Positions 26,018 to 63,978 of a DNA stretch of 64,000 nt are shown in pieces. The notes under the pieces are model-generated. The model was given only the letters and a program-made list of their open reading frames with translations, searched no databases and had not been told where the DNA came from. Origin of the DNA: a virus (lineage: Duplodnaviria > Heunggongvirae > Uroviricota > Caudoviricetes). Positions within the stretch are counted from its first letter, which is position 1. Every line of letters begins with the position of its first letter. Where the stretch lies: positions 11,825 to 75,824 of IMG/VR virus record IMGVR_UViG_3300011442_000002, one strand, 5' to 3'. The position numbers and the translations under genes are program-made.

Positions 26018-26089
26018 GGACGCATAGCTCAGTGGAAGAGCATCGCTCTTACAAAGCGAGGGTCATAGGTTCAAATCCTATTGTGTCTA
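26018..26089 (+). tRNA. tRNA-Val (TAC)
   Basis: Hand-folded cloverleaf. D-arm GCTCAGTGGAAGAGC, anticodon stem TCGCT/AGCGA with loop CTTACAA, T-arm ATAGGTTCAAATCCTAT. Confidence 0.55.
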
Positions 26090-26324
26090 CAACAAATAGT
26101 GTTAGATCATTGACACTCAAAAAGTAATGATAAAAAATTTTTGGTGAAACCCCGGTAATTGATGTCGTTTAGGACTTAGTTATCGGGTTGCTGACCAAAA
26201 ATTGCGACGATAGCAACTAAAGGTTCCATTTTGAAGCCGCTGCCGCCCAGTAGACAATGATCTACTCCGTAGGTGATGGAAGAAGAGTTGCACTTATTAT
26301 CCTCCGAGCATTGGAGGTGACAAA

Positions 26325-26699
26325 ATGGGTACAAAAGCAAATTACGAAACAATGAACTATGCAGCCCGACGCGAGAGAATGGATAAATCGCGCCGTGCTG
26401 GACAACTTAACCGAATATATCGACGTGATGGTGGTATCTGTCAACTCTGCCACAGACCATGTAGTAGAGCCGATGCATCCCGCGATCATATCAAAGACTT
26501 TGCACTGTGTACTCCAGAAGAAGCAAAAGATGATGACAACATGGTACTTGCACACAAAGAGTGTAACAACAACAAGCATCACAAACCTGGACACAGTGTA
26601 GATGTTCGCGATAGAAATTCACACCTAAGCTTCACAATTCAAGAAGCATTTCCAGATTTTAAGTGGAATATAACAGATTTGCCTTCTGAGTCGGATTGA
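26325..26699 (+). CDS. HNH endonuclease (free-standing, homing-type)
   Basis: CQLCH...DHI...H..CNNNKH motif set. A sigma70-like promoter lies upstream and a terminator hairpin downstream. Confidence 0.65.
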   Translation: MGTKANYETMNYAARRERMDKSRRAGQLNRIYRRDGGICQLCHRPCSRADASRDHIKDFALCTPEEAKDDDNMVLAHKECNNNKHHKPGHSVDVRDRNSHLSFTIQEAFPDFKWNITDLPSESD

Positions 26700-26758
26700 A
26701 TCGATTATCTAATTACGAGTTCGAATCTCGTTATTGGTACCCGAAAGGTTTGCCAATA
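26688..26758 (+). ncRNA. modular structured RNA element, family copy 1 (GAGTCGGA...GATTATCT + T-arm-like hairpin)
   Basis: Shares the core with elements at 26910, 27146, 27226, 28896, 31057 and 31652. Overlaps the last codons of the HNH gene. Confidence 0.35.
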
Positions 26759-26850
26759 GCACGACGCATGGTAGCGTCAGCACGCGGCAACTAGTGTTTG
26801 TAGCGTGTTAGAAACAACGGTCGATTCTAAAACATATTCAGAAGCTAGTT

Positions 26851-26883
26851 CTACAGTAGTGTTCCGGCACTACTGTAGTTTTC
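26851..26883 (+). terminator. Rho-independent terminator
   Basis: 11-bp perfect stem CTACAGTAGTG/CACTACTGTAG followed by TTTTC. Confidence 0.6.
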
Positions 26884-26909
26884 ATTGTCAGACTTAGGGC
26901 TGACTTTAA

Positions 26910-26975
26910 ACACGGGTCGAACGTTAACGGTTATCTGGCAGAGAATCTTCCGTTAACAATAACATATCCGTGTCC
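26910..26975 (+). ncRNA. modular structured RNA element, family copy 2
   Basis: GGGTCGAACGTTAACGGTTATCTGG...CCGTTAAC, enclosed by ACACGG/CCGTGT. Confidence 0.4.
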
Positions 26976-27145
26976 TTAAGCTTGTTAGTGGATGCGACGC
27001 AATTCCGTTATTGGGTGTCGTAAGCGTACAGTGGAGGACAAGGTACGCATAATACAGTGTGCTAGTTGAGTCGACAGTAACGTCTACATTGTGAACAGTC
27101 GATAGTTATGCTTGTAGAGACTTAGCACACTTCTTAACTTAGCTT

Positions 27146-27190
27146 GGGTCGAAAGTAGTCGGTTATCTAACATATTGCTTCCCGACTACA
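27146..27190 (+). ncRNA. modular structured RNA element, family copy 3
   Basis: GGGTCGAAAGTAGTCGGTTATCTAAC...CCGACTAC. The stem covaries relative to the other copies. Confidence 0.4.
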
Positions 27191-27225
27191 CGCACATACT
27201 ATATCTAAGCGCTGAATTAAAGTTC

Positions 27226-27285
27226 GGGTCGAACGTTGATTGGTTAGCCTATTAAGCCGCTGGTTCCGGGTTCGAATCCTAGCAG
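27226..27285 (+). ncRNA. modular structured RNA element, family copy 4 (with GGGTTCGAATCC T-loop-like segment)
   Basis: GGGTCGAACGTTGATTGGTTAGCC...GGGTTCGAATCCTAG. Confidence 0.3.
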
Positions 27286-27361
27286 AGATTTAGTTATCTC
27301 TGTAGCTCAATTGGTAGAGCAGCGAAAACCCCGATCAACATACACACATCCGAACTATCCC

Positions 27362-27434
27362 ACCCACATAGCTCACCGGATAGAGCATCACACTACGAAT
27401 GTGAGGGTTGTAGGTTCAATTCCTACTGTGGGTA
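27362..27434 (+). tRNA. tRNA-Arg (ACG)
   Basis: Acceptor ACCCACA/TGTGGGT, anticodon loop CTACGAA, T-arm GTAGGTTCAATTCCTAC. Confidence 0.6.
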
Positions 27435-27590
27435 CGCAAGGAAATCGTGTCCGGCCGACATAGAAGGAATCGTGCATCGCCGATATTAATATGAAGGATG
27501 CACAAATTTTTCCAAATAGATGGCTTCGCGTCACTAGATGGAAAGTCAGTGAAGCCACCGGCACTGAATAAACTCTACCGGTGGCGCCTT

Positions 27591-27665
27591 GTGTCTTAAG
27601 TGTAATGGTTTGCACGAGAGCTTCCAAACCTCTTTGAGTGGGTTCGATTCCTACAAGACGCGCCA
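27591..27665 (+). tRNA. tRNA-Trp (CCA), CCA 3' end encoded
   Basis: Acceptor GTGTCTT/AAGACGC, anticodon loop TTCCAAA, T-arm GTGGGTTCGATTCCTAC. Followed by GCCA. Confidence 0.45.
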
Positions 27666-27723
27666 CAATTAAAAACACGGGACAAAGACATTACTCCAGA
27701 AAACAACTAAGTTCAGGAGTATG

Positions 27724-28885
27724 GATGAGTCAAGTAAAAAGAAGTACAAAGCTGGCGTTATCAGTAGTTCTCGCGTCAGTTCTAATCGCAATCGGATTTG
27801 CAGCTAGTGCTAGTGCTGCTCCATCTGGTTTGCAAGCAAGATTACAACTAGCAGAGGATAACCTGGCAAATTGCCAGTTATTGGCTTCTAATGCGACAGG
27901 TAACCAACTAACTAGAGCACAAAATTGTGTAGCAGATAACCAAGCGATCATTAACCTGATCAATGCTCAGTTAAATCCTACACCTGTACCAAGCACTAGT
28001 AGTACGTCACCTGCGCCTAGTGTGACGGTAACAACACCGGCACCTAGTACAACAACTCCAAGTCCTAGTCCTACTGTTACAACGCCGACACCTACACCAA
28101 GTCCCACAGGGCCGTCTACTACTCTGAAGAATTGCTTTAATTATCTTCACCAGTGTGGATATCCCGACCATGGCGATACCGGTGTACCAGTTGGCACAGT
28201 CTTAACTACGTATACTGGACCGGAAACGATTACCGTAGCTGGCACAGTTATCAATGGCAAGTCCATGAAATGTGTCAACATCAAGGCAGCAAATGTAGTG
28301 ATCCGCAATTCTAAGATCACTGGACCATGCTTCTACGGTGTTGAAATGATTAGTGGTTCTTTGCTTATTGAGTACAGCGAAGTAACCTGTGTTGATGGCA
28401 CTGGTACAGGCATTGCAGATGATGGCTTTACTGCAAGTCATGTATATGTTCATGATTGTGAGAATGGCTTTAGCTTAGGTAGCAACAATATAGTTCGCGA
28501 TTCTTATATTTCGGCTCGCGAAGCTACCTCAGCAGGTCATGGCGATGGTATTCAATCGGTTTCAGCAACAAACGTAACTATTCAGCACAACACGTTTGAC
28601 CTGTTTAACCCGGTAACATCGTCCATTATCATGGACAACCTGACGATGAAGAATCTTTTAGTTCGAGATAACTTCGTTTCGTCTGGTGCACTTACAATTT
28701 ATTGTCCAGAAGCTACTTCAAGCAACGTACAATACATTAACAACCGGTTCTATGGCCCAGTCGGTAACACAAGTATTGATCCACGACGACCGGCTTATGG
28801 TTATACTGATGGTTGCAACGTTGCGGCATTTATTTGGGTAGGAAACTACCGTGACTATGATTTAGGTGTAGTTAACAAGAGTTAA
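27724..28885 (+). CDS. secreted protein: signal peptide + Thr/Pro/Ser-rich linker + right-handed beta-helix (pectate-lyase-like) domain
   Basis: Start reset to MSQVKRSTKLALSVVLASVLIAIGFAASASA (signal peptide), then PTPVPSTSSTSPAPSVTVTTPAPSTTTPSPSPTVTTPTPTPSPTGPST, then NxxI/V-rich beta-helix repeats. Confidence 0.5.
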
Positions 28886-28895
28886 ACGTTGATAT

Positions 28896-28960
28896 GGGTC
28901 GGATGTTGTCGGTTATCTAACTATTATTAGAAGGTATGGGTTCGACTCCCATTGTGAAGC
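28896..28960 (+). ncRNA. modular structured RNA element, family copy 5 (with T-arm hairpin ATGGGTTCGACTCCCAT)
   Basis: GGGTCGGATGTTGTCGGTTATCTAAC immediately after the stop of the secreted-protein gene. Confidence 0.4.
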
Positions 28961-29139
28961 TGTGGAGCAATAAAAACCCGATAACGAAAATTTATCCATA
29001 TCTCATAAGCTGCACCGGGCGCCTTGGCTGGTATACCAATCCCCGTGTGCGTAATTGCTCACACTGGTTACTATGGTGGAGATCACAGGCTTGAAACCAT
29101 ATAGCTCCTAGGAAGCTAGTAATCCAGTGTGGGCATCAT

Positions 29140-29212
29140 GCCGCTTTATCCTAATGGACTAAGGAACCACTCTTCCAAAGTGGGTACGCGGGTTCGATTC
29201 CCGCAAGCGGTT
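29140..29212 (+). tRNA. tRNA-Gly (TCC)
   Basis: Acceptor GCCGCTT/AAGCGGT, anticodon loop CTTCCAA, T-arm GCGGGTTCGATTCCCGC, discriminator T. Confidence 0.6.
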
Positions 29213-29302
29213 CGCCTTTTTACTGCGAAGTTATGGCTAGTTGGTAAGTGTGTTCCAAATCTCCAAAAGGGTTTTGGGTCAGATCAAACACTTACCAACG
29301 AT

Positions 29303-29385
29303 AGAAGATTGCCAGAGTGGCTTATTGGGTTGGTTTGCTAAACCAATGAGGGTAACCTCCACAGGTTCGAATCCTGTATCTTCTG
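29303..29385 (+). tRNA. tRNA-Ser (GCT)
   Basis: Type II. Anticodon loop TTGCTAA, variable hairpin GAGGGTAACCTC, T-arm ACAGGTTCGAATCCTGT. Confidence 0.6.
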
Positions 29386-29684
29386 CGTCCAGTTTACCAG
29401 TTCTGTAACTTAGGGTTTGTAAAGACTGGTCGTCCAATCTGTTTTGGCACAGTAATTGTGGTCAGACGCCTAAATGACGTACAATATCGGTGTCGCAGAC
29501 AAGTTTCTTTGCTGGTTTCTTTAACTGTGGTTAGTCAATAAAGAAACCAGCACCCAAACGAGGTTGTAAGTATACGATAACCGTGAGGTATTCGTACGGC
29601 GTGCGCACACTAAAATTCCCTTATGCAGCTAGGTGCAGCCCAGGGGTAAAGATAAGCCGTTCCTAGCAGACTTACAACTTCTTT

Positions 29685-29765
29685 GCCGACATGGCGGAAT
29701 GGCAGACGCGCTAGATTTAGGTTCTAGTATCTTCGGATGTGCGAGTTCAAGTCTCGCTGTCGGTA
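29685..29765 (+). tRNA. tRNA-Leu (TAG)
   Basis: Type II. Anticodon loop TTTAGGT, variable hairpin ATCTTCGGAT, T-arm GCGAGTTCAAGTCTCGC, discriminator A. Confidence 0.6.
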
Positions 29766-29963
29766 CATGAAAAGATGGTTTAATAAGCAGTTTCCATACA
29801 TGCGACGTTGTGAAAAGAAGTGGTGCTTTAAGGGCCAAACCTATGGTGGACATTGTTATTTACATGCATCAAGTTGGTATGGTGTATAGACGAGGGTGCC
29901 ACGTATAAGAGAGTTTACCTCTCCTGGATTTCTAGACCAGATATGTGAAGGTGGCACCTTTGG

Positions 29964-30039
29964 CATTCTATAGCTCAACAGGCAGAGCGGCTGGCTGAAT
30001 TATGGCCGGCGGATTCAGGTTCGAGTCCTGATAGGATGG
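29964..30039 (+). tRNA. tRNA-like (possible Phe GAA; imperfect anticodon stem)
   Basis: Acceptor CATTCTA/TAGGATG, D-arm GCTCAACAGGCAGAGC, T-arm TCAGGTTCGAGTCCTGA. The anticodon arm pairs poorly. Confidence 0.3.
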
Positions 30040-30299
30040 CATTACGACATGGTGATTCCCAGTAGTCTGACTCTGAGGGGTGATCAGATTACTGCAAAAT
30101 ATGTCGTCTTATGCGAATATCACCGAGACGCATAAGGGTGTAGAAGAAGCGACCAAATTGGCGAGGGCTTCCATGTTGGCTAGGGATGAGGCTAACCTTA
30201 AATAAAAGAATAATCCATATTGAAGCGAAAGCAGACCATTTACCGTTAATTGTTACTTGTTTCTACTGTGTCTGTTTTCGCCCGCGAAAAAGGATTGGT

Positions 30300-31040
30300 A
30301 TGAACAGGAATCGATTAGTCGCGACCTTGCTGTCGGGCTTAATCACGATAGGAATTTTGGGTCTTCCGACTCATGCATTTGCAGCGCAAAGCCCACAGGC
30401 AGCAGCGCCAGTAAGTAGCATAACGGAAGTAGCCAATCTTTCAACTAGTGTAGAGAATAAGACAGTAGCTAGCGATACGTCGGTAACTGTTACCCCGTAT
30501 CCTTCGCCTTATGGCAGTCTTTCTGGTATTTCACAGGCTTTCTATGGCGACATTAGTCACTGGCCGGGCCTATGCTCATCCAATGGCATCGCGAATTGTG
30601 ACCTTCTTTATGTTGGTCAGTCAATTAGAGTTCCTACTACTGCACCTGTGGGTCCGGCCCCTGCACCGGCGCCCGCTCAGGCACCAGCAAACAATTCTAG
30701 TAGAGCACAGAGAATTGTAAACTATGCTCTAGCGCAGGTTGGCAAACCTTATGTTTGGGCAGCGGCTGGTCCATATGCCTTTGACTGTTCAGGTTTGGTA
30801 ATGCGTGCACTAGAGCAGGTTGGTGTATATGTTCCACACCAGGATCAATCAATTCTGTATTCTGGTCAAGGCTATGCAGTATCGCGTGACAATCTTCAGC
30901 CAGGTGACATCGTTTGGCCGTACAACGGCCATGTCTTTGTTTACATTGGCAATGGTAAGATTGTAGAGGCAGCCAACCCGGCTCAAGGTGTGATTGTTAA
31001 CAACCTTTACTCGTTTATGGCTGCTCGCCGGTACGTATAA
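30300..31040 (+). CDS. secreted LysM + NlpC/P60 peptidoglycan endopeptidase
   Basis: Signal peptide MNRNRLVATLLSGLITIGILGLPTHAFAAQ. LysM (GISQAFYGDISHW...LLYVGQSIRVP). NlpC/P60 (FDCSGLV...H). Start reset from the listed 30186. Confidence 0.6.
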   Translation: MNRNRLVATLLSGLITIGILGLPTHAFAAQSPQAAAPVSSITEVANLSTSVENKTVASDTSVTVTPYPSPYGSLSGISQAFYGDISHWPGLCSSNGIANCDLLYVGQSIRVPTTAPVGPAPAPAPAQAPANNSSRAQRIVNYALAQVGKPYVWAAAGPYAFDCSGLVMRALEQVGVYVPHQDQSILYSGQGYAVSRDNLQPGDIVWPYNGHVFVYIGNGKIVEAANPAQGVIVNNLYSFMAARRYV

Positions 31041-31056
31041 ATTAATAGGCTTGGAT

Positions 31057-31099
31057 GGGTCGGATCTTATCGGTTACCAATCATATAAACCCGATAAGC
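31057..31099 (+). ncRNA. modular structured RNA element, family copy 6
   Basis: GGGTCGGATCTTATCGGTTACCAATC...CCGATAAG, directly after the stop of the NlpC/P60 gene. Confidence 0.4.
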
Positions 31100-31120
31100 A
31101 AATAAAATACCTATCCAACT

Positions 31121-31205
31121 GGAGAGTTAGCCTAGTGGCCTAAGGCGCCAGTCCTGAAAACTGGAGAAGGTAACACTTCCGTGGGTTCGAATCCTACACT
31201 CTCTG
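31121..31205 (+). tRNA. tRNA-Ser (TGA)
   Basis: Type II. D-arm GCCTAGTGGCCTAAGGC, anticodon loop CCTGAAA, T-arm GTGGGTTCGAATCCTAC, discriminator G. Confidence 0.6.
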
Positions 31206-31236
31206 CGCAAGGTCCCTACTATAGGGAGGAAAATGG

Positions 31237-31632
31237 ATGGCAGATGTTAATATAAGCCTGGATTTCTCAGGATTGCCACCCACCGTAAGTGCTGTCCATG
31301 TGCACATTGAATATGCACACGGGTTAGAAGCGAAAATCGACGCGATTGGAGTACAAGTGTCAGAGCTTGACGACGCCGTAGCTGCTGTAAATGCGCAGAC
31401 TTCGGAGATTCTCGTTAACACTAACGAGCTAGTTAAGGATGTTACTCGACTCATTGAGCAGGGTGACACTTCCGCCGCGCTAGCTGAGCTACAGACGATT
31501 TCTACTAACCTAGAGACAGCTAACGCTGCACTCGTAACGACAGACCAGGCAGTAGAAGTAGCTTCTCCGGAAACTCCTGCTACGCCAGAACCAACCCCAG
31601 TAGTAGCGCCATCGGTAATCGACGAGCTGTAA
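31237..31632 (+). CDS. hypothetical coiled-coil protein
   Basis: 131 aa. Confidence 0.45.
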   Translation: MADVNISLDFSGLPPTVSAVHVHIEYAHGLEAKIDAIGVQVSELDDAVAAVNAQTSEILVNTNELVKDVTRLIEQGDTSAALAELQTISTNLETANAALVTTDQAVEVASPETPATPEPTPVVAPSVIDEL

Positions 31633-31651
31633 AATCAAAGCTTAGCTGTTG

Positions 31652-31740
31652 GGTCGAAGTTAATTGTTTATCTCAGATAGTTTAAAGGGTAAAACAATCC
31701 TCATTGAGGGTTAATGTCGGTTCGAATCCGACTCTGAAAT
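31652..31740 (+). ncRNA. modular structured RNA element, family copy 7 + T-arm hairpin (GTCGGTTCGAATCCGAC); candidate Y-RNA-like ncRNA next to the Ro60 gene
   Basis: GGGTCGAAGTTAATTGTTTATCTCAG with stem ATTGTTT/AAACAAT, then CCTCATTGAGGG, then a T-arm. Confidence 0.4.
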
Positions 31741-31776
31741 TCGTAACGATTACAACACATATCCAATAGTCCTTTG

Positions 31777-31871
31777 GGGACACATGGGTCCACTAGTATA
31801 TTTCTGATCAACTAGTGAGCGTGGGCATGATCAGACCTACGATGATAGGGTTCGAGTCCCTATGTCTCCAC
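31777..31871 (+). ncRNA. tRNA-like ncRNA (acceptor-like stem + T-arm, extra internal hairpin); candidate YrlA-type tRNA-like domain
   Basis: GGGGACA...TGTCTCC acceptor-like pairing. T-arm TAGGGTTCGAGTCCCTA. Internal CACTAGT...ACTAGTG hairpin. No canonical anticodon arm. Confidence 0.35.
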
Positions 31872-32107
31872 ATGAAAGTGCAAAATGATGCAAAAACACT
31901 AATACAAGCACTTGATCTTTTACACGAAGATTTACCTTGTGAAGGTAACATCGAAAAAGAATTTTGTAGTAGATGTATTCATCTTAGGCCAACTTTGGTT
32001 GCATACGTTGAGTCATTGCCACAATGGCAGCTTGGTTTGGTAGTACTTATAATAATTCTAAAATCTCTATACACAATCGTAATATATCCCTTTAGGAGGG
32101 GTCGACT

Positions 32108-33706
32108 ATGGCTAACTCAGCATTCTCCCGTGCGTTAGGCACTCCAGCAATTCAGACCGAAAAGGCTCGCCCGGATCAGGTCGAGAACAACGCTGGTGGA
32201 TTTGTTTTTGAGGTGTCTGACCAGGCACGGCTTGAGCGCTTTTTAATTCTCGGCACTGATGGTGGAACGTACTATACGTCTGAGAAGAAGCTCACTAAGG
32301 AAAATATCGCGTTTTTACAGGACCTTATTGAGCGTAACGAAGACCTAGTAATCGACGTTGTGCGTGCAGTATCCATGGGTGGACGTGCTTACCGTAACTC
32401 TGCGGCAATCTTCACTGTTGCTGCTTTGTTTACCTACGGTAAGGAAAAGTCTTCTCAGCTAGTTGAGGATGTTTGCCGCACTGCGACGCACCTGTTTGAG
32501 TTTGCTGAGTACGTAGAACTACTTGGTGGTTGGGGACGTTCTAAGCGTCGCGCCGTTGCCGAGTGGTACACTAACAAGACACCAGAAGCATTAGCTTATC
32601 AGGTAATTAAGTATCGTCAGCGCAATGGTTGGTCTCACCGCGACCTTCTACGTTTGTCCCACCCTGTGGGCCTTAACAAGCGGGTAGGCAATTTCATTAC
32701 TGGTGAGGACAAGCGTCCTGCTGCTAGTACTACTGACGAAGAAGATTTGGGCATTATCCGTGCTTTCAAGTTTGCACAGGAAGCTCAGTCATTTTCTGAA
32801 TTGAAGAATATGGCGCTAACCGAGCGTAGTCTACCTTGGGAAGCTGTACCTACGGAGTTCCACAAGAATGTCGAACTTTGGAAGACTCTTTTCTACAATG
32901 GTGCGCTCAAAGGTCAAGCCCTTCTGCGTAATATTACTCGCTTGGCTCGTTTGGGCGCTTTTGACGATCTCGTGTTTGCTCGCGATTTCGCTGATGGACT
33001 TCTTAACGAGGAAATGATTAAGCGTACCAAGCTACACCCGATTCAGTACTTGCTTGCACTATCGGTACACCAGATAGGTCAGGTTGATCGTAAGCTTCAC
33101 GTTAGAACTAAGGATTGGCGCGAGTCACACATCATTGTAGATGCACTTAATGAGGGATTCTACAAGGCATTTAGCTATGTAGAGCCAGCAAATAAGCGCA
33201 CTATGATCGGTCTCGATGTTTCAGGATCTATGTCTAGTAGTGCTCTTGGATTAGAACTTAGCTGTGCGCAAATTGGTGCAGCTATGTCTATGTCAATTGC
33301 TCGTACTGAGCCTTACTATGCAATTATGGGCTTCAAGAACAAGTTAACAGACCTTGGTATCACTGCTAGCATGGATCTGAACAGTGTGTTGCAGCGTACT
33401 GAAAACCAAACTTTTGGTAGCACTGATTGTTCGCTACCAATTCTTTACGCACAGATGAACAACATCGCAATTGATACCTTTGTCATTATGACCGACAATG
33501 AAACTTGGTTTGGTAGTGTGCATCCATTCATAGCGCTCCGTGATTATCGACAGAGAACTGGTATTGATGCAAAGCTAGTGGTAGCAGGACTAACGACAAC
33601 TGAATTCACTATTGCAGATCCTCGCGATCGTGGTATGCTAGATGTAGTTGGTGCTGATGCTAACCTTCCAAAGCTTGTTTCCGAATTCAGTGCAGGCAGG
33701 ATTTAA
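32108..33706 (+). CDS. rsr: Ro60 / TROVE-domain protein with C-terminal vWA (MIDAS DxSGS) domain (Rsr-like)
   Basis: LERFLILGTDGGTYY is a TROVE signature. C-terminal GLDVSGSMSS. The size (532 aa) is typical for Ro60 orthologs. Confidence 0.65.
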   Translation: MANSAFSRALGTPAIQTEKARPDQVENNAGGFVFEVSDQARLERFLILGTDGGTYYTSEKKLTKENIAFLQDLIERNEDLVIDVVRAVSMGGRAYRNSAAIFTVAALFTYGKEKSSQLVEDVCRTATHLFEFAEYVELLGGWGRSKRRAVAEWYTNKTPEALAYQVIKYRQRNGWSHRDLLRLSHPVGLNKRVGNFITGEDKRPAASTTDEEDLGIIRAFKFAQEAQSFSELKNMALTERSLPWEAVPTEFHKNVELWKTLFYNGALKGQALLRNITRLARLGAFDDLVFARDFADGLLNEEMIKRTKLHPIQYLLALSVHQIGQVDRKLHVRTKDWRESHIIVDALNEGFYKAFSYVEPANKRTMIGLDVSGSMSSSALGLELSCAQIGAAMSMSIARTEPYYAIMGFKNKLTDLGITASMDLNSVLQRTENQTFGSTDCSLPILYAQMNNIAIDTFVIMTDNETWFGSVHPFIALRDYRQRTGIDAKLVVAGLTTTEFTIADPRDRGMLDVVGADANLPKLVSEFSAGRI

Positions 33707-33912
33707 TGTCAACATTAATTGATGCAGATGAAGAAGTAGTTGTAACTGATGCATATGGAAATAAGGCAAATGTAAGCTACGAAGACGCACTAGATATTGC
33801 TCAATGGTATGAGCTTGACAAGCATGACAAGCTTCATCCAATGACAATAGCAACCATAGTAGCTGCATTGATTACATGTGTATTTTCGCTGTCTGTGGCA
33901 ATTTTGCTATAA
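33706..33912 (+). CDS. small protein with C-terminal TM helix
   Basis: 68 aa. Coupled to the Ro60 stop. Confidence 0.4.
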   Translation: MSTLIDADEEVVVTDAYGNKANVSYEDALDIAQWYELDKHDKLHPMTIATIVAALITCVFSLSVAILL

Positions 33913-34127
33913 CTCCTGCTGTCTGCACTGCAGCAGGATTGCTGGCCAGTTTAGAATACCTCCACTTATTCGAAGACTGCGTTTGACACTATTATTAGAT
34001 TGGGATAGGATCTGATAGTCCCCGCTATCCCTAGTTCCGACCGGCTAGTTGAACTAGGCAATCTAGTATTAGGGCAGGGTGAGCCTGCGGCTAACCATAT
34101 GACCAGCACATAGAGGTTAGCACCTAA

Positions 34128-34200
34128 GCTTCCGTACTCCAATGGCAGAGAGAGCCGACTTAAAATCGGTACAGTATGGGTTCGACTCCCATGGGAAGCA
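34128..34200 (+). tRNA. tRNA with anticodon TAA (Leu-type anticodon) but type I (short variable arm)
   Basis: Anticodon stem GCCGA/TCGGT, loop CTTAAAA, T-arm ATGGGTTCGACTCCCAT. One G-G mismatch in the acceptor. Confidence 0.4.
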
Positions 34201-34201
34201 C

Positions 34202-34414
34202 ATGAACGAACAAGCATTTGAAGAAATGGCAAAACTTTTGGGTCATCAAGTGAAAATAACTCTTTCCTGGGAAGATTCACAATCAATCATTATTGGTAAT
34301 TTCTTTGGATTAGACATCGAAGGTAGTGCTGTCGTAGATACTACCGAAGGTAGACGATACGTTTGGCCTGTGTTATTTGTAGAACATCTTGATTCATGTA
34401 AACATGCATCATGA
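34202..34414 (+). CDS. hypothetical protein
   Basis: Start reset to the ATG just after the tRNA. Confidence 0.35.
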   Translation: MNEQAFEEMAKLLGHQVKITLSWEDSQSIIIGNFFGLDIEGSAVVDTTEGRRYVWPVLFVEHLDSCKHAS

Positions 34415-34418
34415 GAAT

Positions 34419-34490
34419 GGCCCCATTGAGTATTGGTTAGCTTTGCGCTCTTTCACAGCGTAGGACAGGGTTCGATTCCCTGTGGGGCTA
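34419..34490 (+). tRNA. tRNA-Glu (TTC)
   Basis: Acceptor GGCCCCA/TGGGGCT, anticodon loop CTTTCAC, T-arm CAGGGTTCGATTCCCTG. Confidence 0.55.
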
Positions 34491-34595
34491 CGGTAGTACG
34501 TACGGCTCATACCCGTACGTTGCTGCAAGCGGATCACAGTCCGCGCCTGGCAACAGATGAAACTGCTGTGTACAGTGTAATTGAGCCAGGTTTAA

Positions 34596-34669
34596 CGGGA
34601 TATGGCGCAGTTTGGCAGCGCGCTTGCTTTGGGAGCAAGAAGTCGTAGGTTCGAATCCTACTATCCCGA
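34596..34669 (+). tRNA. tRNA-Pro (TGG)
   Basis: C1-G72 pair, anticodon loop TTTGGGA, T-arm GTAGGTTCGAATCCTAC, discriminator A. Confidence 0.6.
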
Positions 34670-34852
34670 CATGTTAATAGAAGATGTAGGAATTAGATTA
34701 GTAACCTCCAATAAACAGCTAACGTACACAGAGCTTTTAGCTTTTCTAAAAGCTATATCTGATCGTAAGATGGAAGCTTGTATGATCTATATAAGGGAAA
34801 ATGGGTTAGAAACTGTAATAGGAAATAATCTAGGGTCGAAGACGGACTAGAT

Positions 34853-35038
34853 ATGTTTATAGTACATCTAGCAGTTGACGAAGCACCAGAACTTACAGTT
34901 TGTGGAATTCCATGGCAAGATTGGCAAGCACCAAGATACGCAAAACATATCACCCTACTTGGTAGGGTGCCAGCAACTGGTGATTTGTTGCACTTTTGTG
35001 ACAAGTGCAGAGCTAGTCTGTTCATCACTGGTGAATAA
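34853..35038 (+). CDS. hypothetical Cys-containing protein
   Basis: 61 aa. Confidence 0.35.
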   Translation: MFIVHLAVDEAPELTVCGIPWQDWQAPRYAKHITLLGRVPATGDLLHFCDKCRASLFITGE

Positions 35039-35238
35039 TTAAATATGGGTTAGTGCCAGAGGTCTGGCAGGCAGTCTGTAAAACTGCTGCACATAGTGCA
35101 ATGTAGGATCGTTACCTACCTGGCCCACAAATCGTGTCTGACATATACATGATATCCACACGAGAGTTACTACTCCGGACGCGCTGCATAGTAACCAAGC
35201 TAGTGGTAAAAAGAGTAACGTGCTTAATATGTCACTTT

Positions 35239-35312
35239 GGGGAATTGGCGCAATCTGGCAGCGCAGGACCTTTGCAAGGTCAAGGCTATCGGTTCAAATC
35301 CGATATTCTCCA
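35239..35312 (+). tRNA. tRNA-Ala (TGC)
   Basis: G3-U70 pair present. Anticodon loop TTTGCAA, T-arm ATCGGTTCAAATCCGAT. Confidence 0.6.
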
Positions 35313-35412
35313 CGATGTGCCTGACATATGCACGTGCCTATAATGACGTAGCAATTAGCGGATATGCTACCGCTCAATAAATAGGGATGGGACCGCTCCT
35401 AATATGTCACTT

Positions 35413-35485
35413 GTGACCATACCATAACGGCTAATGGACTACCCTGTCACGGTAGGATATGAGGGTTCGAATCCCTTTGGTCACG
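35413..35485 (+). tRNA. tRNA-Asp (GTC)
   Basis: Perfect acceptor GTGACCA/TGGTCAC, anticodon loop CTGTCAC, discriminator G. Confidence 0.65.
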
Positions 35486-35619
35486 CGCAATTATTGGTGA
35501 GGGAATGTCGACGGACATGATGGTAGTGGAGTTTTTAGATGGGTCAGGTACGGTAGGCTCTCCGTAGGATGCATACGAAAGAGATCGTACACGACAGTAA
35601 CCTTGATTGCTAAGTCCCA

Positions 35620-35688
35620 TATGAGCTTATGGTAAAGCTCCAACTTCGCGGCGGGATGTAGGTTCGAATCCTACTATGGGACCGTGGA
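35620..35688 (+). tRNA. tRNA-like (acceptor TCCCATA/TATGGGA + T-arm; anticodon arm not foldable)
   Basis: GTAGGTTCGAATCCTAC T-arm and AGCTTATGGTAAAGCT D-arm, but no canonical anticodon stem. Confidence 0.25.
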
Positions 35689-35881
35689 TGCAGAACTAGT
35701 AGTTATTCATTTGATAGATTTCGATGGCAGATTTGGTGACCATCCAGTTGCTTGCAATGGTGCAGTAGCTGGAGATAAAGCCATAACTATCGAACAAGCT
35801 AAAGATCCTGAAAATCAGATGTTTTTTAATTGTCCGAAATGCTATGAAATATTCACTGGAGAAAAGCCAAATGGCGAATAA
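35684..35881 (+). CDS. hypothetical protein (CPKC)
   Basis: 65 aa. Confidence 0.4.
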   Translation: MDAELVVIHLIDFDGRFGDHPVACNGAVAGDKAITIEQAKDPENQMFFNCPKCYEIFTGEKPNGE

Positions 35882-36074
35882 CAATGATTTTCAGATTGAA
35901 CTGCGAGCGCTACTTGGAAAGCACATGATCGACATATATTGCCGCACTCGTGATGTAACTTTAGTAGATTACATCGTAGCATGTCTTACTGCTTATCGAA
36001 GGGCGTTCTTAGAAACAAAGGATTTAGAAGCAGCTAGTTCTAGGGCCGCAGATAACATTTCCGATCCGACATAG
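35871..36074 (+). CDS. hypothetical protein
   Basis: Start reset to MANNNDFQ. Confidence 0.35.
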   Translation: MANNNDFQIELRALLGKHMIDIYCRTRDVTLVDYIVACLTAYRRAFLETKDLEAASSRAADNISDPT

Positions 36075-36137
36075 CTCAGTTGGCAGAGCGCTGCACTGTT
36101 AATGCGGATGTCACAGGTTCGAGCCCTGTTGTCGGAG
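36065..36137 (+). tRNA. tRNA-Asn (GTT)
   Basis: Acceptor TCCGACA/TGTCGGA perfect. Anticodon loop CTGTTAA, T-arm ACAGGTTCGAGCCCTGT, discriminator G. Confidence 0.65.
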
Positions 36138-36167
36138 CGCAAGTTTAACAAACTAGGAGAATTTATA

Positions 36168-36440
36168 ATGGCTGGTGAAGACCTTCAGGCACAGTACAAT
36201 CATCTTCTATGGCAGCTTGGACAGCTACATGAGGAAGCTAAGATTGCTGGCCAGGTTTATCAGGAAAAGCTAAAGGCAATTCGTAAGCGCAGTGAGAAGC
36301 TAAACGAGCATTTGCATAGTCTAGGTTCGGCTATTCGCAAACGGCATACCCCACAGGTGGCCGGTGTAGCGGGTCGATTTCCGCAGGAACAATTGGTTGA
36401 TCCGCGTTCTGACTGGAGTTCCTCGAACGTAGGCGGATAA
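36168..36440 (+). CDS. hypothetical coiled-coil protein
   Basis: Start after the AGGAG SD (MAGEDLQAQ). Confidence 0.4.
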   Translation: MAGEDLQAQYNHLLWQLGQLHEEAKIAGQVYQEKLKAIRKRSEKLNEHLHSLGSAIRKRHTPQVAGVAGRFPQEQLVDPRSDWSSSNVGG

Positions 36441-36474
36441 TATATGAACAGTTAACGAGTCCTAAGGAGGACAT

Positions 36475-36837
36475 ATGTTAAAGGTTCATATATGGTCGCA
36501 CAAAGATGGTGACCACCTAGCAGTTGTTGAAGTACCATGGTGGCATGATATTCTTGATTGGTTGTTTACCAAACTATTTTGTCCTTGCTGTGGGTTTTCT
36601 GGTTGGTTATCTGGAAAAGCAGAATGGTTAGAAATCTTCTTTTGGAAACTATCTAATCATTTAAGTAACTTTACCTGGAAACTTGAAAAAGAGTTGTACA
36701 AAACGCCAATCGAGTCTGGCTGTGTTGCTACTCGGACAATATTTGATCCAAAATCATCTTGTTGGCGTGACAATTGTGATGTTTGTTGGGCTGAGCGAGA
36801 GGATGCATATTCTCATGAAGCGAGGCGCGAAGAGTAG
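36475..36837 (+). CDS. Cys-rich hypothetical protein
   Basis: 120 aa. Contains CPCCGFSGW...CWRDNCDVCW. Confidence 0.45.
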   Translation: MLKVHIWSHKDGDHLAVVEVPWWHDILDWLFTKLFCPCCGFSGWLSGKAEWLEIFFWKLSNHLSNFTWKLEKELYKTPIESGCVATRTIFDPKSSCWRDNCDVCWAEREDAYSHEARREE

Positions 36838-36994
36838 AACTAAAAAAGCTCTACGCGATCAAGCCAACAGCAAGGCCAGAGTTAAACTCCAAAAACAGGT
36901 ACGCGATTGGTTGAAATCGCCAAAGACAGCATTAGATGATAACCAATCAGTACCTGCCCAACATAGACATTCTGTACTGTGGGATGTTGGATGA
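36806..36994 (+). CDS. small basic protein
   Basis: Internal start of listed ORF 36683, after the GAGAGG SD. Confidence 0.3.
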   Translation, partial: HILMKRGAKSRTKKALRDQANSKARVKLQKQVRDWLKSPKTALDDNQSVPAQHRHSVLWDVG

Positions 36995-37254
36995 AAGACT
37001 TTGATTTTGAAGCATTCATGGCTAGGGCGTTGCGCAATGAGCTAGAAGCGCAACGCCCAAGACAATGCTCAGAAACAATTAGTGGTTATCATGATACCAC
37101 AGATCGTCTAGGTAAATGTTGTTTGTGTCGTAAGAAAATCACTAAGGGTGATCGACAGCCAGATCCAGACCTTAAACATAAATCTAATCTAGTACTTGCT
37201 TACGAGTATTTTTATGATCCAAACTATGGTGATAGTGTATATGACCTATACTAA
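36979..37254 (+). CDS. hypothetical Cys-containing protein
   Basis: 91 aa. Confidence 0.4.
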   Translation: MGCWMKDFDFEAFMARALRNELEAQRPRQCSETISGYHDTTDRLGKCCLCRKKITKGDRQPDPDLKHKSNLVLAYEYFYDPNYGDSVYDLY

Positions 37255-37262
37255 TTGAATAT

Positions 37263-37333
37263 GCCCTCGAAGCATTAAGGTGATGCTCCGGACTTTTAAT
37301 CCAGAGAACGCGGATCAATACCGCGCGAGGGTA
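37263..37333 (+). tRNA. tRNA-Lys (TTT), atypical T-loop (ATCAATA)
   Basis: Acceptor GCCCTCG/CGAGGGT, anticodon loop CTTTTAA. The T-stem CGCGG/CCGCG pairs, but the loop lacks TTC. Confidence 0.4.
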
Positions 37334-37345
37334 CGCAACCATAAT

Positions 37346-37417
37346 TGAGCTATGGTCTAATTGGCAGGACGACGGATTTTGATTCCGTTGGTTTAGGTTC
37401 GAATCCTAGTGGCTCAG
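37346..37417 (+). tRNA. tRNA-Gln (TTG)
   Basis: U1-A72 pair, anticodon stem ACGGA/TCCGT, loop TTTTGAT, discriminator G. Confidence 0.6.
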
Positions 37418-37588
37418 CGTGAAAACATTTGAGCTTGTCGAAAAGCTACATGAGCTTATGCGACAAACCGGTAAGGGTGGTCGAGAAATTCAAATCATAT
37501 CCGATGATGGATATGTTCTCGACATTGTCCAAGCTAAATTTGATCCAGAAAATGAGAAGTTTTTCCTAATCACTGAGGAAGCAGAATA

Positions 37589-38959: not shown

Positions 38960-38961
38960 CA

Positions 38962-39335: not shown

Positions 39336-39348
39336 GATAGGTGACCAA

Positions 39349-60059: not shown

Positions 60060-60431
60060 TTAGTTGCTTATTAATGAAATCGCTCCGACTATCATGCCAA
60101 ATACAACTCCAATACCAGCTATTGCAGCTAATACTTTTTGCCAAGGTGACCAAGCAGTTACCGATTGAGCACGTCTAGCTTCATCTGCATCTTTTAGGGC
60201 TGATGCCGTAGCTATAACCGTAGCTGCTGATGCAGTAGCTTTATCACTTAAACGTTGAACTTCTAAAATCATAATATTTTGTCGAGCCAAGAACTGGTCT
60301 AGTGTACCAGCAATTCTATCCAGACTGCCGTTAATCGAAGAAAAATGCTTATCATGGCCGGCTAGTCTGGTAGCTACTTCGCCAGCAATTACCCCGCGAT
60401 CGTAGCCTTCTTGCACACTCTCATCTGTCAT
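60060..60431 (-). CDS. lysis-cassette protein with C-terminal TM anchor
   Basis: 123 aa. C-terminal hydrophobic helix. Confidence 0.4.
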   Translation of the reverse strand: MTDESVQEGYDRGVIAGEVATRLAGHDKHFSSINGSLDRIAGTLDQFLARQNIMILEVQRLSDKATASAATVIATASALKDADEARRAQSVTAWSPWQKVLAAIAGIGVVFGMIVGAISLISN

Positions 60432-60729
60432 TTATCGGTTTCCTAGCTTCTAGTTGGTATTTTATCAGTAAAGCTACCTGCGACCATACTAATACCGATA
60501 TTAGTATGAGCACAATCACCCAACCTATAGTTCTCCACCGTTCTTCAATATATCTACTAAACAGTGCATATATGAATGACACAGCAAAACCAGACATGAA
60601 AGACAGCATGTGTCTTCCTATATGATCTCTCCATGGAGGCGGTTTGGTTAAGAAAGCATATATAAAACAGAAGGTCAAAAACCCAAATATCACTACCCAC
60701 AGGAACAGGTCTAGTAACGTGTCAGCCAT
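60421..60729 (-). CDS. holin-like membrane protein (3-4 TM)
   Basis: 102 aa, multi-TM, with a charged C-terminus. Confidence 0.45.
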   Translation of the reverse strand: MADTLLDLFLWVVIFGFLTFCFIYAFLTKPPPWRDHIGRHMLSFMSGFAVSFIYALFSRYIEERWRTIGWVIVLILISVLVWSQVALLIKYQLEARKPINDR

Positions 60730-60955
60730 GATTTACCCTCCCGAAGGAACGGCCAATTTCCTCGGTATATCTGTCAACCTTATAGCTAACACGTCTGGCG
60801 CTTGCAGCCGCTTTAGCTATTTCTTTACTCTTGGCTCTAGTTTGGGCTAGCTTACGTTCAGCGGCTTTAAGTCTTAACTCTGCTAGGTCAAAATTTTCAT
60901 CTTGCTCAGCTTCGATTTCAGTACACGACTTCTTTCCAAATGGCCACCACTTCAT
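60722..60955 (-). CDS. hypothetical protein
   Basis: 77 aa. Confidence 0.35.
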   Translation of the reverse strand: MKWWPFGKKSCTEIEAEQDENFDLAELRLKAAERKLAQTRAKSKEIAKAAASARRVSYKVDRYTEEIGRSFGRVNHG

Positions 60956-61257
60956 GATGAAACAACCCTTTCGCCTATTCTAGGCGGTAGCGCGTCTATC
61001 ATTCCATGTGCACGCGATACCTCTAGAATTTGGTCGAACTTGCTGTCTAATAAGTCACTCCGGGCGTCGAGTTTCTCATTGATCTGTTCGAGCTTAGCTA
61101 TATACGCATCCTTGTCTTTTAACCGTTTCTCTTTCTCTTCTAGGAGTATTTCGACAGACCTTCTGGTATACAGTTGGGCTCGAAAAAATCCTATAAAGAG
61201 TAGGACCAGAAACATACCTCCAAATCCAAAGTTTACAAAGTAAAGGGCGTCAGGCAC
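60952..61257 (-). CDS. membrane-anchored coiled-coil protein
   Basis: N-terminal TM followed by a coiled coil. Confidence 0.4.
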   Translation of the reverse strand: MPDALYFVNFGFGGMFLVLLFIGFFRAQLYTRRSVEILLEEKEKRLKDKDAYIAKLEQINEKLDARSDLLDSKFDQILEVSRAHGMIDALPPRIGERVVSS

Positions 61258-61904: not shown

Positions 61905-62989
61905 AGGTCTGGATCTCCTTCGAATACTAATTCGACTTCTTCGGTAGCGCTAGAAGACTGAGGCGTTAACGACCATTTGAGTAATCTCTTACTTGCTGAG
62001 AAGCCATTACCAGGATTACGAGCATCTTTGATAACAATTTTACAGAGATCACCTAGACCATAGCTACCAAATTCTGGTGTTAGATTGGCTTTAACGTTCA
62101 TTTTGATTATAGACATAGGCGGATTACGAGATAGTCCTTCTTGTGCTGCTAAACCATCTGCCAAAGTTTGACTACTTACATCTTTTCTATTAACATCTGC
62201 ATCCCAAATTAGTGAACCTTCGGCAATTGCAGTCGTATTTGTATAAGTTCCAACAATCATTCCTGAACCTTCACCAGCACCAATAACATAAATATTTGTA
62301 CCAGCATCTGCCATTGGTTCGGTAAGGTAATATTGAACTATGTTGCCTGGATATTCAAATACAGTCATACCAATAGATGCACCAGTACCAAGTGTTGGAT
62401 AACCAATCAGTAGGTCTTTACGATATAACGATCCATCCTTGGTAATACCTATATACCAGTCAAAGCCATTAACCCCACTAGCAATCGAAGACATAACATT
62501 ATCGTAGTACTTGAAATCAGTAGCTAAAATTGCTAAATCAATTGGAACTACAGATGTAAAGCTACTTGGTACGTTAACGTTAGCATTGCCGCCAGTAGGC
62601 GTTTGCATCTGTATCCAGAGATCACGAAAAATGTTTCTCTGCTCTTGTGCTGTATATGTTAGATCAGAACGAATCAGTCGTTTTCTTGGATAATTATCAA
62701 AGCTTAATGCATATAGCTGGACGGATTTAGATTGCGCTGAGTATACTCGACTCCAAATATAGCCATGCCAAATAGGAATACCATTGCGTTCACAAGTAAC
62801 CCAGGTACGTCCTGGAATACATGCAGATAACAAAGTATCGTTATCTTTGCCTGTTTGATCTAACTGGAAAGTACCCTGCAGGGCGCCACCGACGTTTATC
62901 GTCATATCCATGATGACGCCATACAGAGCTATCTCTTCGATGACTTGCTCAGTTCGAAGAGTACCAAATATGTATCGGTAGTCAGTCAT
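61901..62989 (-). CDS. hypothetical late protein (possible minor tail / lysis accessory)
   Basis: 362 aa. Confidence 0.35.
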   Translation of the reverse strand: MTDYRYIFGTLRTEQVIEEIALYGVIMDMTINVGGALQGTFQLDQTGKDNDTLLSACIPGRTWVTCERNGIPIWHGYIWSRVYSAQSKSVQLYALSFDNYPRKRLIRSDLTYTAQEQRNIFRDLWIQMQTPTGGNANVNVPSSFTSVVPIDLAILATDFKYYDNVMSSIASGVNGFDWYIGITKDGSLYRKDLLIGYPTLGTGASIGMTVFEYPGNIVQYYLTEPMADAGTNIYVIGAGEGSGMIVGTYTNTTAIAEGSLIWDADVNRKDVSSQTLADGLAAQEGLSRNPPMSIIKMNVKANLTPEFGSYGLGDLCKIVIKDARNPGNGFSASKRLLKWSLTPQSSSATEEVELVFEGDPDL

Positions 62990-63978
62990 TACTCAATAGG
63001 CTCATTTGCACCAGTAGTACCACTAAACTTGTGCTGATGTGGTCCGCCAGGACCAGGAAGACCACCAGCAAATGTACCGATATCCATACCCCATATGTCC
63101 ATATCAGCAGGAGTGAATTGCTGAGGTGTCTTACTGCCAACCTCTGTTGTTACGGTTAGCGGCATTGGCCGACCACCACGCTGATACCAGTAAGCCATAT
63201 CATCACGTTGCTTTGTCGTCACAAGCTGACGTAATGTACCATCACTGAGCCAGATTGTGCCATCAGTGCAATACACAAATACTGGATACATTTCTGTCTC
63301 CTCTGCTTCGGAACCAAGTACCGTCATTAGTTCAGTTAGTGTGCCACGATAAGCGTTAGCATCACATGTGGTTTGATTTCCTATATTTGTATTGGAGCCA
63401 TATTGCAAGAATAATGGTGTTTGTCCACTATATGCTTGCCAGCGCTTGATATCATTGTTACCAGGATATACGCTTCTATAATGTCCAACTGGGTTCCCGC
63501 CGTAGGCAGAAGCCCACAGGCGGTACGTTAGGCCGGTGAGGCTGTTCCCATATAACCATTGTGGCGCGTAGGCAATTACCTTGGCTGGTTTAACTCCGTG
63601 TACACTGACTAATCGATCCCCGAAAGCTTGAATTTCTGCCAATGTAGGTGCACTTGGCATGTAGTCAAACTTTTCGGCATCGATTTGTAGAATGAAACAT
63701 GGGTGCTCACGCCACCATGGTGTATCCTGATTTAGAATCTCAACAAACCAGTCAACCTGATCAGCTACCGAGCCAGGGTGGTTTACGAAATATGCACCAA
63801 GAACTGGAATACCTAAGTTCTTTGCATTGTTTAGTGACTGAGCATACTCTCTATCATAGTAAGAGTGGTGCCCTTCACCAGCTTTGTGTGTATAGTAATC
63901 AATGCCATCACGTACCGTTGGCTGGTCATCGTAGTTAGAAGCATCCCAACCAAATGTAGTATCGTTAGCTCCCATCAC
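62989..63978 (-). CDS. GH25 muramidase (endolysin)
   Basis: N-terminus DASNYDDQ...DGIDYYTHKAGEG is typical of glycoside hydrolase family 25. Confidence 0.55.
   Translation of the reverse strand: MMGANDTTFGWDASNYDDQPTVRDGIDYYTHKAGEGHHSYYDREYAQSLNNAKNLGIPVLGAYFVNHPGSVADQVDWFVEILNQDTPWWREHPCFILQIDAEKFDYMPSAPTLAEIQAFGDRLVSVHGVKPAKVIAYAPQWLYGNSLTGLTYRLWASAYGGNPVGHYRSVYPGNNDIKRWQAYSGQTPLFLQYGSNTNIGNQTTCDANAYRGTLTELMTVLGSEAEETEMYPVFVYCTDGTIWLSDGTLRQLVTTKQRDDMAYWYQRGGRPMPLTVTTEVGSKTPQQFTPADMDIWGMDIGTFAGGLPGPGGPHQHKFSGTTGANEPIE

Follow-up and report, generated by a model that had tools for sequence, protein, structure and literature searches.

We examined two genes, which we call A and B, in a stretch of 64,000 nucleotides from the genome of a tailed phage (Caudoviricetes; positions 11,825 to 75,824 of the IMG/VR record IMGVR_UViG_3300011442_000002; we refer to the whole stretch as the window). 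Gene A (27725..28885, + strand) encodes a predicted exported beta-helix protein of 386 amino acids, and gene B (30300..31040, + strand) encodes a predicted exported LysM-NlpC/P60 peptidoglycan endopeptidase of 246 amino acids. With moderate confidence, we propose that both proteins are accessory envelope enzymes that leave the intact cell via the Sec pathway, and that they are neither parts of the virion nor the principal endolysin. Signal-peptide-like N-termini, the folds of envelope enzymes, a location away from the virion genes, and the presence of a separate lysin lead us to favor export over a role in the virion. The phage is a large, uncultured phage of actinobacteria, and the genome that contains the window has a GC content of about 44%.

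To find export signals, we scored all open reading frames (ORFs) of at least 70 amino acids in the window, in six frames, with a home-made heuristic that considers the n-, h-, and c-regions and the A-x-A cleavage site. Gene A ranked first (6.56) and gene B ranked second (5.49); the next ORF scored 4.19. In gene A, the predicted signal peptide covers residues 1-31 (27725..27817, + strand), with cleavage predicted between ASA and A. The N-terminus (MSQVKRSTKLALSVVLASVLIAIGFAASASA, followed by APSG) opens with a positively charged n-region; about 19 residues form an uncharged hydrophobic core, and an A-x-A site follows. In gene B, the predicted signal peptide covers residues 1-28 (30300..30383, + strand; MNRNRLVATLLSGLITIGILGLPTHAFA, followed by AQSP). 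Its hydrophobic core (LVATLLSGLITIGILGL) is about 40% glycine, alanine, serine, or threonine and leads into a good site for cleavage between AFA and A. In both proteins, a positive n-region, an uncharged core, and an A-x-A site fit export by Sec and cleavage by signal peptidase I. (We also considered export as lipoproteins or by the Tat pathway and rejected both, as there is no lipobox cysteine and no conserved twin-arginine motif.)

Homologs at 30-70% identity keep the signal-peptide-like N-termini. For gene A, a hydrophobic segment at the N-terminus is present in nearly all homologs that are full-length, and in 92 of the 103 full-length representatives of the domain family; 64 of the 103 have a linker rich in proline, threonine, and serine. 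Similarly, among the 33 closest homologs of gene B, all of those that are correctly started and not truncated have an equivalent N-terminus, and the signal peptide is conserved in P0059-P0090. The first-pass annotation of this DNA had proposed signal peptides for both proteins (of the Sec type in A), and these results agree with it. Judging from these sequence features, Sec export of A and B is likely, and signal peptidase I would cleave both.

Gene A is laid out as a signal peptide, a helical hairpin, a linker rich in proline, threonine, and serine, and a beta-helix domain. The ATG at 27725 has AGGAG five nucleotides upstream, and a public gene call (P0001, 386 amino acids) starts there as well. 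The first-pass annotation had placed the gene at 27724-28885. The end is correct, but 27724 is out of frame (34 stop codons). A longer ORF that begins with GTG at 27638 was also listed; it overlaps a tRNA at 27591-27662 that was found only with Rfam. The hairpin (residues 35-83; 27827..27973, + strand) is predicted by AlphaFold, with helices at 35-56 and 59-83 and a predicted local distance difference test (pLDDT) score of about 90. It includes a pair of cysteines (Cys50 and Cys68) within the motif ANCQLL…QNC, which is also found in P0002, P0031, P0037, and P0054. In the linker (residues 84-135; 27974..28129, + strand), 42 of the 52 residues (81%) are proline, threonine, or serine, and the pLDDT is around 50.

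The remainder of gene A (residues 136-386; 28130..28882, + strand) is a right-handed beta-helix domain. It matches Pfam's Beta_helix (PF13229) with 33.2 bits, above the cutoff of 25.9 (E = 4.8e-8). In the AlphaFold model, which was built with 35 homologs, the mean pLDDT is 86.7, and the beta-helix has a pLDDT above 90 from about residue 175. Given a profile score above the cutoff and the predicted fold, we assign gene A to the superfamily of right-handed beta-helix or pectate-lyase-like proteins (PF13229). His272 is invariant in the broad alignment of 35 sequences. Asp259 and Ser260 are conserved in at least 90% of these sequences and are invariant in the 12 closest homologs, as is Asp274. Eight cysteines lie in the beta-helix domain, and five of them are invariant among the closest homologs. 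The mature protein has ten cysteines; besides the five invariant ones, a further three are shared by at least 90% of the 12 closest homologs. Ten cysteines would suit an oxidised, exported protein.

We could not place gene A in a defined family of polysaccharide lyases (PL) or glycoside hydrolases (GH), such as PL31, PL6, GH28, or GH87: at sequence level it belongs to no characterised family of either kind. The family profile from the 35 sequences gave a weak match to PL6 only, and the beta-helix domain by itself has no relative among PDB sequences. The domain belongs to a large family, with 2,757 cluster representatives at E ≤ 1e-3. A Foldseek search of viral models gave only weak matches (best E = 1.7e-6). 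Tailspikes are among the structural neighbors of A. We found no homolog with tblastn against 50,697 sequenced phage records and no relative in a scan of IMG/VR. Gene A has no particle-attachment domain.

For gene B, the start at 30300 had been called correctly in the first-pass annotation, and AAGGA lies upstream. The NlpC/P60 domain (residues 134-246; 30699..31037, + strand) is a clear member of Pfam's NLPC_P60 (PF00877; MEROPS C40), with 61.3 bits against a cutoff of 23 (E = 9.5e-17), and is modeled with a pLDDT above 90. Cys163 and His211 are invariant across 19 sequences, and position 222 is glutamate (as in gene B) or histidine. From what is known of the family, we take Cys163, His211, and the third polar residue to be catalytic. 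Among proteins of known structure, the best relatives are a stand-alone NlpC/P60 domain (PDB:8er5) and mycobacterial RipC (PDB:8idc), with E-values as low as 1.8e-20 (3.9e-16 for the RipC chain). Gene B also matches NCBIfam's model for RipC (NF038345) with E = 1.1e-27, which is far under the curated cutoff for full-length proteins. Between the signal peptide and the catalytic domain is a LysM-like module (residues 60-111; 30477..30632, + strand) with a pair of cysteines (Cys92 and Cys100). Its score against Pfam's LysM (PF01476) is 19.1 bits, just below the cutoff of 20.9 (E = 1.3e-3). AlphaFold predicts the beta-alpha-alpha-beta fold of LysM (strand 60-63, helices 74-82 and 85-94, and strand 108-111, with pLDDT of 82-88), and more distant homologs of gene B have canonical Pfam LysM matches. 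The folds that the first-pass annotation had proposed, a beta-helix in A and LysM with a Cys-His peptidase of the NlpC/P60 type in B, were thus recovered. In the 50,697 sequenced phage records, only the catalytic domain of gene B is matched (coverage of 44% or less), and most of these matches lie within tape-measure or tail proteins.

We then considered where A and B lie in the genome. According to profile scans of the ORFs, the - strand carries the virion genes, which occupy both ends of the window: the head protease, portal, and large terminase are at 48-4792 (- strand), and minor tail proteins and a lysin-like gene are at 61275-63978 (- strand). A siphovirus tail module, with tube, tape measure (850 amino acids), and Dit genes, lies just to the right of the window. 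The + strand from about 8 to 60 kb contains small ORFs, tRNAs, a Ro60/TROVE protein, and replication genes (a helicase, an exonuclease, a Sak4-like protein, a primase, and a DNA polymerase). A and B are in this non-structural arm, on the + strand, and have neither the location in the tail module nor the attachment domain that would be expected of virion enzymes.

On the other strand, about 30 kb away from A and B, the phage seems to carry late lysis genes of the usual kind. A gene in the late/tail operon (62989..63975, - strand) encodes a non-secreted LysA-like (GH25-like) lysin of 328 amino acids. It matches the endolysin family phrog_3084 (E = 1.5e-20), is 28-30% identical to lysin A of cluster J mycobacteriophages and of Rhodococcus phage ReqiPine5, and lacks a signal-peptide-like N-terminus. 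Downstream of the tail genes are four small ORFs (60060..61257, - strand) without family matches. Three of them have evident hydrophobic membrane segments, and from their sequences we infer that these are holin-like candidates. A distance of about 29-33 kb separates gene B from the holin-like ORFs and the LysA-like gene, which are on the opposite strand. This does not fit systems of the Lys44 type, where the main endolysin is encoded in a lysis cassette with a holin.

Just outside the window and immediately upstream of the LysA-like gene is a gene for a protein of 268 amino acids (L009 8994-9800, or about 64176-64982 in window coordinates, - strand). It has a strong signal-peptide-like N-terminus (…IGSVASA, followed by AN) and a weak match, below the cutoff, to GDSL lipases/acylhydrolases (E = 5.7e-5). 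If this prediction is correct, the GDSL-type protein would be a third exported envelope enzyme of the phage.

Relatives of A and B are found together on other contigs. The closest arrangement is on L002 (14.5 kb, 45.5% GC), where the order is tRNAs, an HNH endonuclease, gene A (50% identity), tRNAs, gene B (65% identity), a coiled-coil protein of 121 amino acids, and Ro60. The order of A, B, the protein of 121 or 131 amino acids, and Ro60 is kept between the two at 50-66% protein identity, and the signal peptides of A and B are found in L002 as well. L004, a phage-like contig of 109 kb and 63% GC, has both A and B, along with its own phrog_3084 lysin. One of the two genes is found on other phage contigs, including L007 (which has a portal protein, E = 1e-229) and L005 (which has a tail protein). 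Overall, homologs of A and B are on phage contigs of 43-63% GC. Within the phage, the GC and GC3 (GC at third codon positions) of A and B match the rest of the genome (gene B's GC3 is 39%), which marks them as old residents. Cellular relatives are in actinobacteria: the closest cellular copies of A (45-50% identity) are from Dactylosporangium roseum and from metagenome-assembled genomes of Micromonosporaceae and other Actinomycetota, and the nearest cellular NlpC/P60 domains to gene B are actinobacterial. The cellular copies of A also have a hydrophobic N-terminus and then a linker rich in proline, threonine, and serine.

The first-pass annotation emphasized that A and B are embedded in a tRNA island. 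This is true here and in L002, but not in the more distant contigs: we found one tRNA in L004 (in the region we fetched) and none in L005 or L007. Because these contigs are poor in tRNAs, the island position is specific to one lineage, while the non-structural position is general. The same island in L002 encodes two more proteins with export-type N-termini. One (5964-6353) matches peptidase-inhibitor family I36 (E = 1.4e-8) and begins with a signal-peptide-like segment; the other (13875-14504) is a DUF5052 protein with a lipoprotein-like N-terminus (…FTSASA, followed by cysteine).

How might A and B work? The simplest role for them is accessory lysis. We propose that they are transcribed with the surrounding island of tRNAs and Y-RNA-like elements (described below), on the strand of the replication genes. 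Their N-terminal signals would direct Sec export, and signal peptidase I would cut after ASA in A and after AFA in B. Mature B would bind peptidoglycan via its LysM-like module, and its RipC-type NlpC/P60 domain (Cys163-His211-Glu222) would cut stem peptides. Mature A would be a compact beta-helix of the polysaccharide lyase or hydrolase type, carried on its proline/threonine/serine-rich linker, and might cut a wall-associated or extracellular glycopolymer of the actinobacterial host. By analogy with exported endolysins and with Tgl of kayviruses (see below), both enzymes would probably be largely harmless as long as the membrane stays energised. They would act fully once the membrane potential is lost through the holin-like proteins and the LysA-like lysin leaves the cytoplasm. 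The result would be faster breakdown of the wall and the glycopolymer, freeing the progeny. Destruction of receptors on the infected cell and on debris would be a by-product or an alternative benefit.

A few observations weigh against accessory export. The hydrophobic core of gene B is fairly rich in glycine, serine, and threonine and may instead be a signal-anchor-release (SAR) sequence or a membrane anchor. The LysA-like gene has the Dit/tail genes on one side and two "minor tail" genes on the other and could encode a tail-associated lysin, in which case B is perhaps the true endolysin. Also, our scans for promoters (14 found, 15.4 expected) and terminators (12 found, 7.2 expected) gave results near chance and do not define transcription units or indicate the timing of expression.

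Of the other explanations, the one we rank highest, although we consider it unlikely, is the idea from the first-pass annotation that A and B act on the living infected cell or its neighbors, by stripping or altering a receptor glycopolymer and the wall. The benefits would be to block superinfection, to keep progeny from sticking to debris, or to open neighboring cells, hyphae, or biofilm. The genes' location on the strand with the early and replication genes and the depolymerase-type fold of A are consistent with this, and the I36-like protein with a signal peptide in L002's island hints at a wider set of exported effectors. But an unrestrained endopeptidase made early would risk premature lysis. 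Also, known exclusion proteins, for instance T4 Sp, T5 Llp, and Ltp, act as inhibitors or are lipoproteins rather than hydrolases. (Ltp is described as an exclusion protein in PMC3952083.) An equally doubtful extension is that the phage has a small secretome, released from the living cell, that reshapes the cell's surface or surroundings rather than simply aiding lysis. Its members might be the glycopolymer-cutting beta-helix enzyme, the endopeptidase, and the exported esterase-like protein, as well as the protease-inhibitor-like protein in L002, and their conceivable effects are to destroy receptors, to block superinfection, or to prepare neighboring cells or hyphae. Of the first-pass annotation's proposal, we retain export from the infected cell as the best reading of the sequences; superinfection exclusion and community effects are speculation.

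Slightly less probable still is that B is the real endolysin, exported as Lys44 is, while the GH25-like protein is a virion lysin for entry and A is a partner that cuts glycopolymer. The neighbors of the LysA-like gene fit this: it is flanked by Dit/tail and "minor tail" genes, and it adjoins the GDSL-type gene, whose signal-peptide-like N-terminus suggests that the phage routinely exports envelope enzymes. Exported endolysins are also well documented (PMC6116005). However, B is about 29 kb from the holin-like ORFs, on the opposite strand; the GH25-like protein resembles the lysin A proteins of cluster J phages and ReqiPine5, which are annotated as endolysins; and L004 carries both types of lysin as well. 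We think it quite improbable that A and B are passengers from the host's secretome that entered a recombination-prone tRNA/HNH island and do not benefit the phage. An HNH endonuclease is present in the island, the island's content varies between relatives, and in cells, the nearest copies belong to the secreted proteins of Dactylosporangium and other Micromonosporaceae. But gene order is kept even though identity is just 50-66%, the composition is fully phage-like, the catalytic residues and cysteines are intact, and the genes are found on phage contigs that span 43-63% GC. Least plausible of all is a place in the virion, with A as a tail depolymerase, B as a tail lysin, and hydrophobic N-termini that are not signal peptides. 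In favor of this, tailspikes are structural neighbors of A, and B-like NlpC/P60 domains in sequenced phages are mostly in tape-measure or tail proteins. Yet both genes lie off the structural module and on the other strand, and each encodes a small protein that stands alone and lacks an attachment domain. Canonical cleavage sites and a linker of the type seen in secreted enzymes also argue against a role in the virion, and the cellular homologs share this secreted architecture.

The part of the tRNA island that encloses A and B (27362..31206, + strand) was defined with ARAGORN and Rfam. Its tRNAs start at 27362 (Arg), 27591 (Rfam only), 29140 (Gly), 29303 (Ser), 29685 (Leu), 29964 (Phe), and 31121 (Ser). 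Across the whole island (26018-42264), ARAGORN finds 22 tRNAs, and A and B are inside it, on the strand of the replication genes. Rfam adds two tRNA-like sequences that ARAGORN does not call (27591-27662 and 35615-35682). An HNH endonuclease gene (26325-26699, + strand) is also inside the island, with a homolog in the same place in L002, and may contribute to gene turnover there. Gene B is followed by a gene (31237-31632, + strand) for a predicted coiled-coil protein of 131 amino acids (121 in L002) with a tail rich in proline and threonine; it has no signal peptide, and its Pfam matches are weak and below the thresholds. Another gene in the island (37589-38521, + strand) encodes a membrane-scaffold protein of the SPFH/Band 7 family (Pfam E = 2.3e-14; PHROG "lipoprotein"). 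L004 has a weak Band 7 match as well, with a lipoprotein-like N-terminus.

The first-pass annotation had also noticed a modular RNA element immediately after each of the two genes, and we can confirm this. The motif GTCGRA-N6-YGNTTAYC occurs six times on the + strand of the window (starting at 26690, 26916, 27148, 28898, 31059, and 31653), and no copies are expected by chance. One copy is 13 nucleotides past the stop codon of A and another is 19 nucleotides past the stop codon of B. In the folds of the copies, a long closing stem encloses a variable insert. The element after gene A (28891..29002, + strand) has a T-arm-like hairpin inside the long closing stem, while the element after gene B (31052..31117, + strand; fold z = -2.5) is a stem-only version and is followed by a tRNA-Ser. 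In L002 there are four copies, including one 146 nucleotides past gene A and one 14 nucleotides past gene B. The shared 5' strand of the element (TGGGTCGAAAGTAGTCGGTTATCTAAC) resembles the Ro-binding strand of Y RNAs. There is also a match to Rfam's YrlA at 27258-27326, below the threshold (39 bits against a gathering score of 69), and the Ro60 gene (32108-33706, + strand) is 1 kb downstream of gene B. Because of the likeness to the Ro-binding strand, the weak match to YrlA, and the nearby Ro60, we think that the elements are probably Y-RNA-like partners of the phage's Ro60, with or without a tRNA-like insert. They may also process or stabilise the 3' ends of the mRNAs of A and B. (ARAGORN calls a tRNA-Asn with the unusual anticodon ATT at 31670-31742, overlapping the element at 31653; this may be the tRNA-like module of the element and not a true tRNA.)

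Outside of the island, an ORF of 155 amino acids (20794-21261, + strand) has a lipoprotein-like N-terminus (MKTAIIGTVILLLLTAG, followed by SC) and no family match. As to the genome itself, a metagenomic contig of 75.8 kb from ENA (ena:ERZ27267705:k141_773735) is the same sequence as the window from about position 14034 onwards, by coordinate arithmetic. This contig runs about 25.8 kb past the right end of the window and does not cover positions 1-14033. The partial overlap implies that the window comes from a different, longer or permuted assembly and that the genome is at least about 90 kb. A megablast search of 27000-32000 against sequenced phages matched just a tRNA-Leu, so there is no close isolate among them. 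PHROGs or Pfam scans of about 40 ORFs in the window, most of the larger ones among them, revealed no integrase family, and the genome extends beyond the window.

Most of the phage lysins known to be exported serve as the only endolysin of a small phage that infects Firmicutes or Gram-negative bacteria. Here, a conserved pair of predicted exported enzymes, one for peptidoglycan and one probably for a glycopolymer, is encoded outside of the lysis cassette in large uncultured phages of actinobacteria. Sequenced phage isolates contain no full-length counterpart of either A or B. The beta-helix family of A is large and uncharacterised, almost all of its members have an export- or anchor-type segment at the N-terminus, and the phage copy offers a compact way to approach the family's substrate. 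If it is true that the enzymes act before lysis, then a lytic phage would be remodelling its host's surface from outside the membrane. On the practical side, A and B are candidate enzymes for actinobacterial cell walls.

Among cellular enzymes, gene B is most similar to actinobacterial RipC and RipA (PDB:8idc and PDB:3ne0; NF038345), with which it shares an NlpC/P60 domain and an active site of the Cys-His-Glu type. Unlike them, B is encoded by a phage and lacks the long coiled-coil region at the N-terminus, with a LysM-like module instead. Cellular RipC is controlled by FtsEX through the coiled-coil region. The loss of this region and the presence of the LysM-like module fit an enzyme that is freed from the host's control. 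Gene A can be compared to tailspike or capsule depolymerases and to lyases of PL31 and PL6 (PDB:6kfn, PDB:6f7k, and PDB:7dmk). A is compact, with about 250 residues in the catalytic domain, and in contrast to those enzymes, it has a signal peptide and a linker rich in proline, threonine, and serine, has no virion-attachment domain, and is encoded outside of the tail module.

Well-established cases of phage lysins with export signals include Lys44 of Oenococcus phage fOg44, an exported endolysin, and the SAR endolysins; the principle that exported endolysins are restrained until the membrane is de-energised is established too (PMC6116005). Together with the secreted lysin Tgl of kayviruses (PMC7150955), they show that signal peptides on phage lysins have precedents and that the first-pass annotation overstated the novelty. 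Like these endolysins, B is a predicted muralytic enzyme with an N-terminal secretion signal that would, on the evidence of its sequence, be exported by the host's Sec machinery before lysis. But Lys44 and SAR endolysins are the main endolysin, in a lysis cassette beside a holin, whereas B is encoded elsewhere and a separate LysA-like lysin is present.

By analogy, the closest functional precedent is Kayvirus Tgl. In the Staphylococcus phage K group, Tgl is an extra lysin that is secreted via Sec and is modelled on the host's autolysins; the host's RNA polymerase can transcribe its gene in the manner of an early gene; and Tgl has been proposed to work alongside the main endolysin after the membrane becomes de-energised (PMC7150955). 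Like B, Tgl is a phage-borne version of a secreted autolysin of the host's type, has a signal peptide, and is encoded separately from the major endolysin; its phages, too, are large and lytic and infect Gram-positive bacteria. The two differ in chemistry and in context: Tgl is similar to lytic transglycosylases and its gene is a few genes away from lysK, while B is a predicted LysM-NlpC/P60 endopeptidase that lies about 30 kb from the late lysin, in a tRNA island, and is paired with a second predicted exported enzyme. Overall, the feature is real and conserved, but it varies a theme already familiar from exported lysins of other phages, and its main interest lies in the uncharacterised family of secreted beta-helix proteins and in the paired arrangement, away from the lysis cassette, in uncultured phages of actinobacteria.

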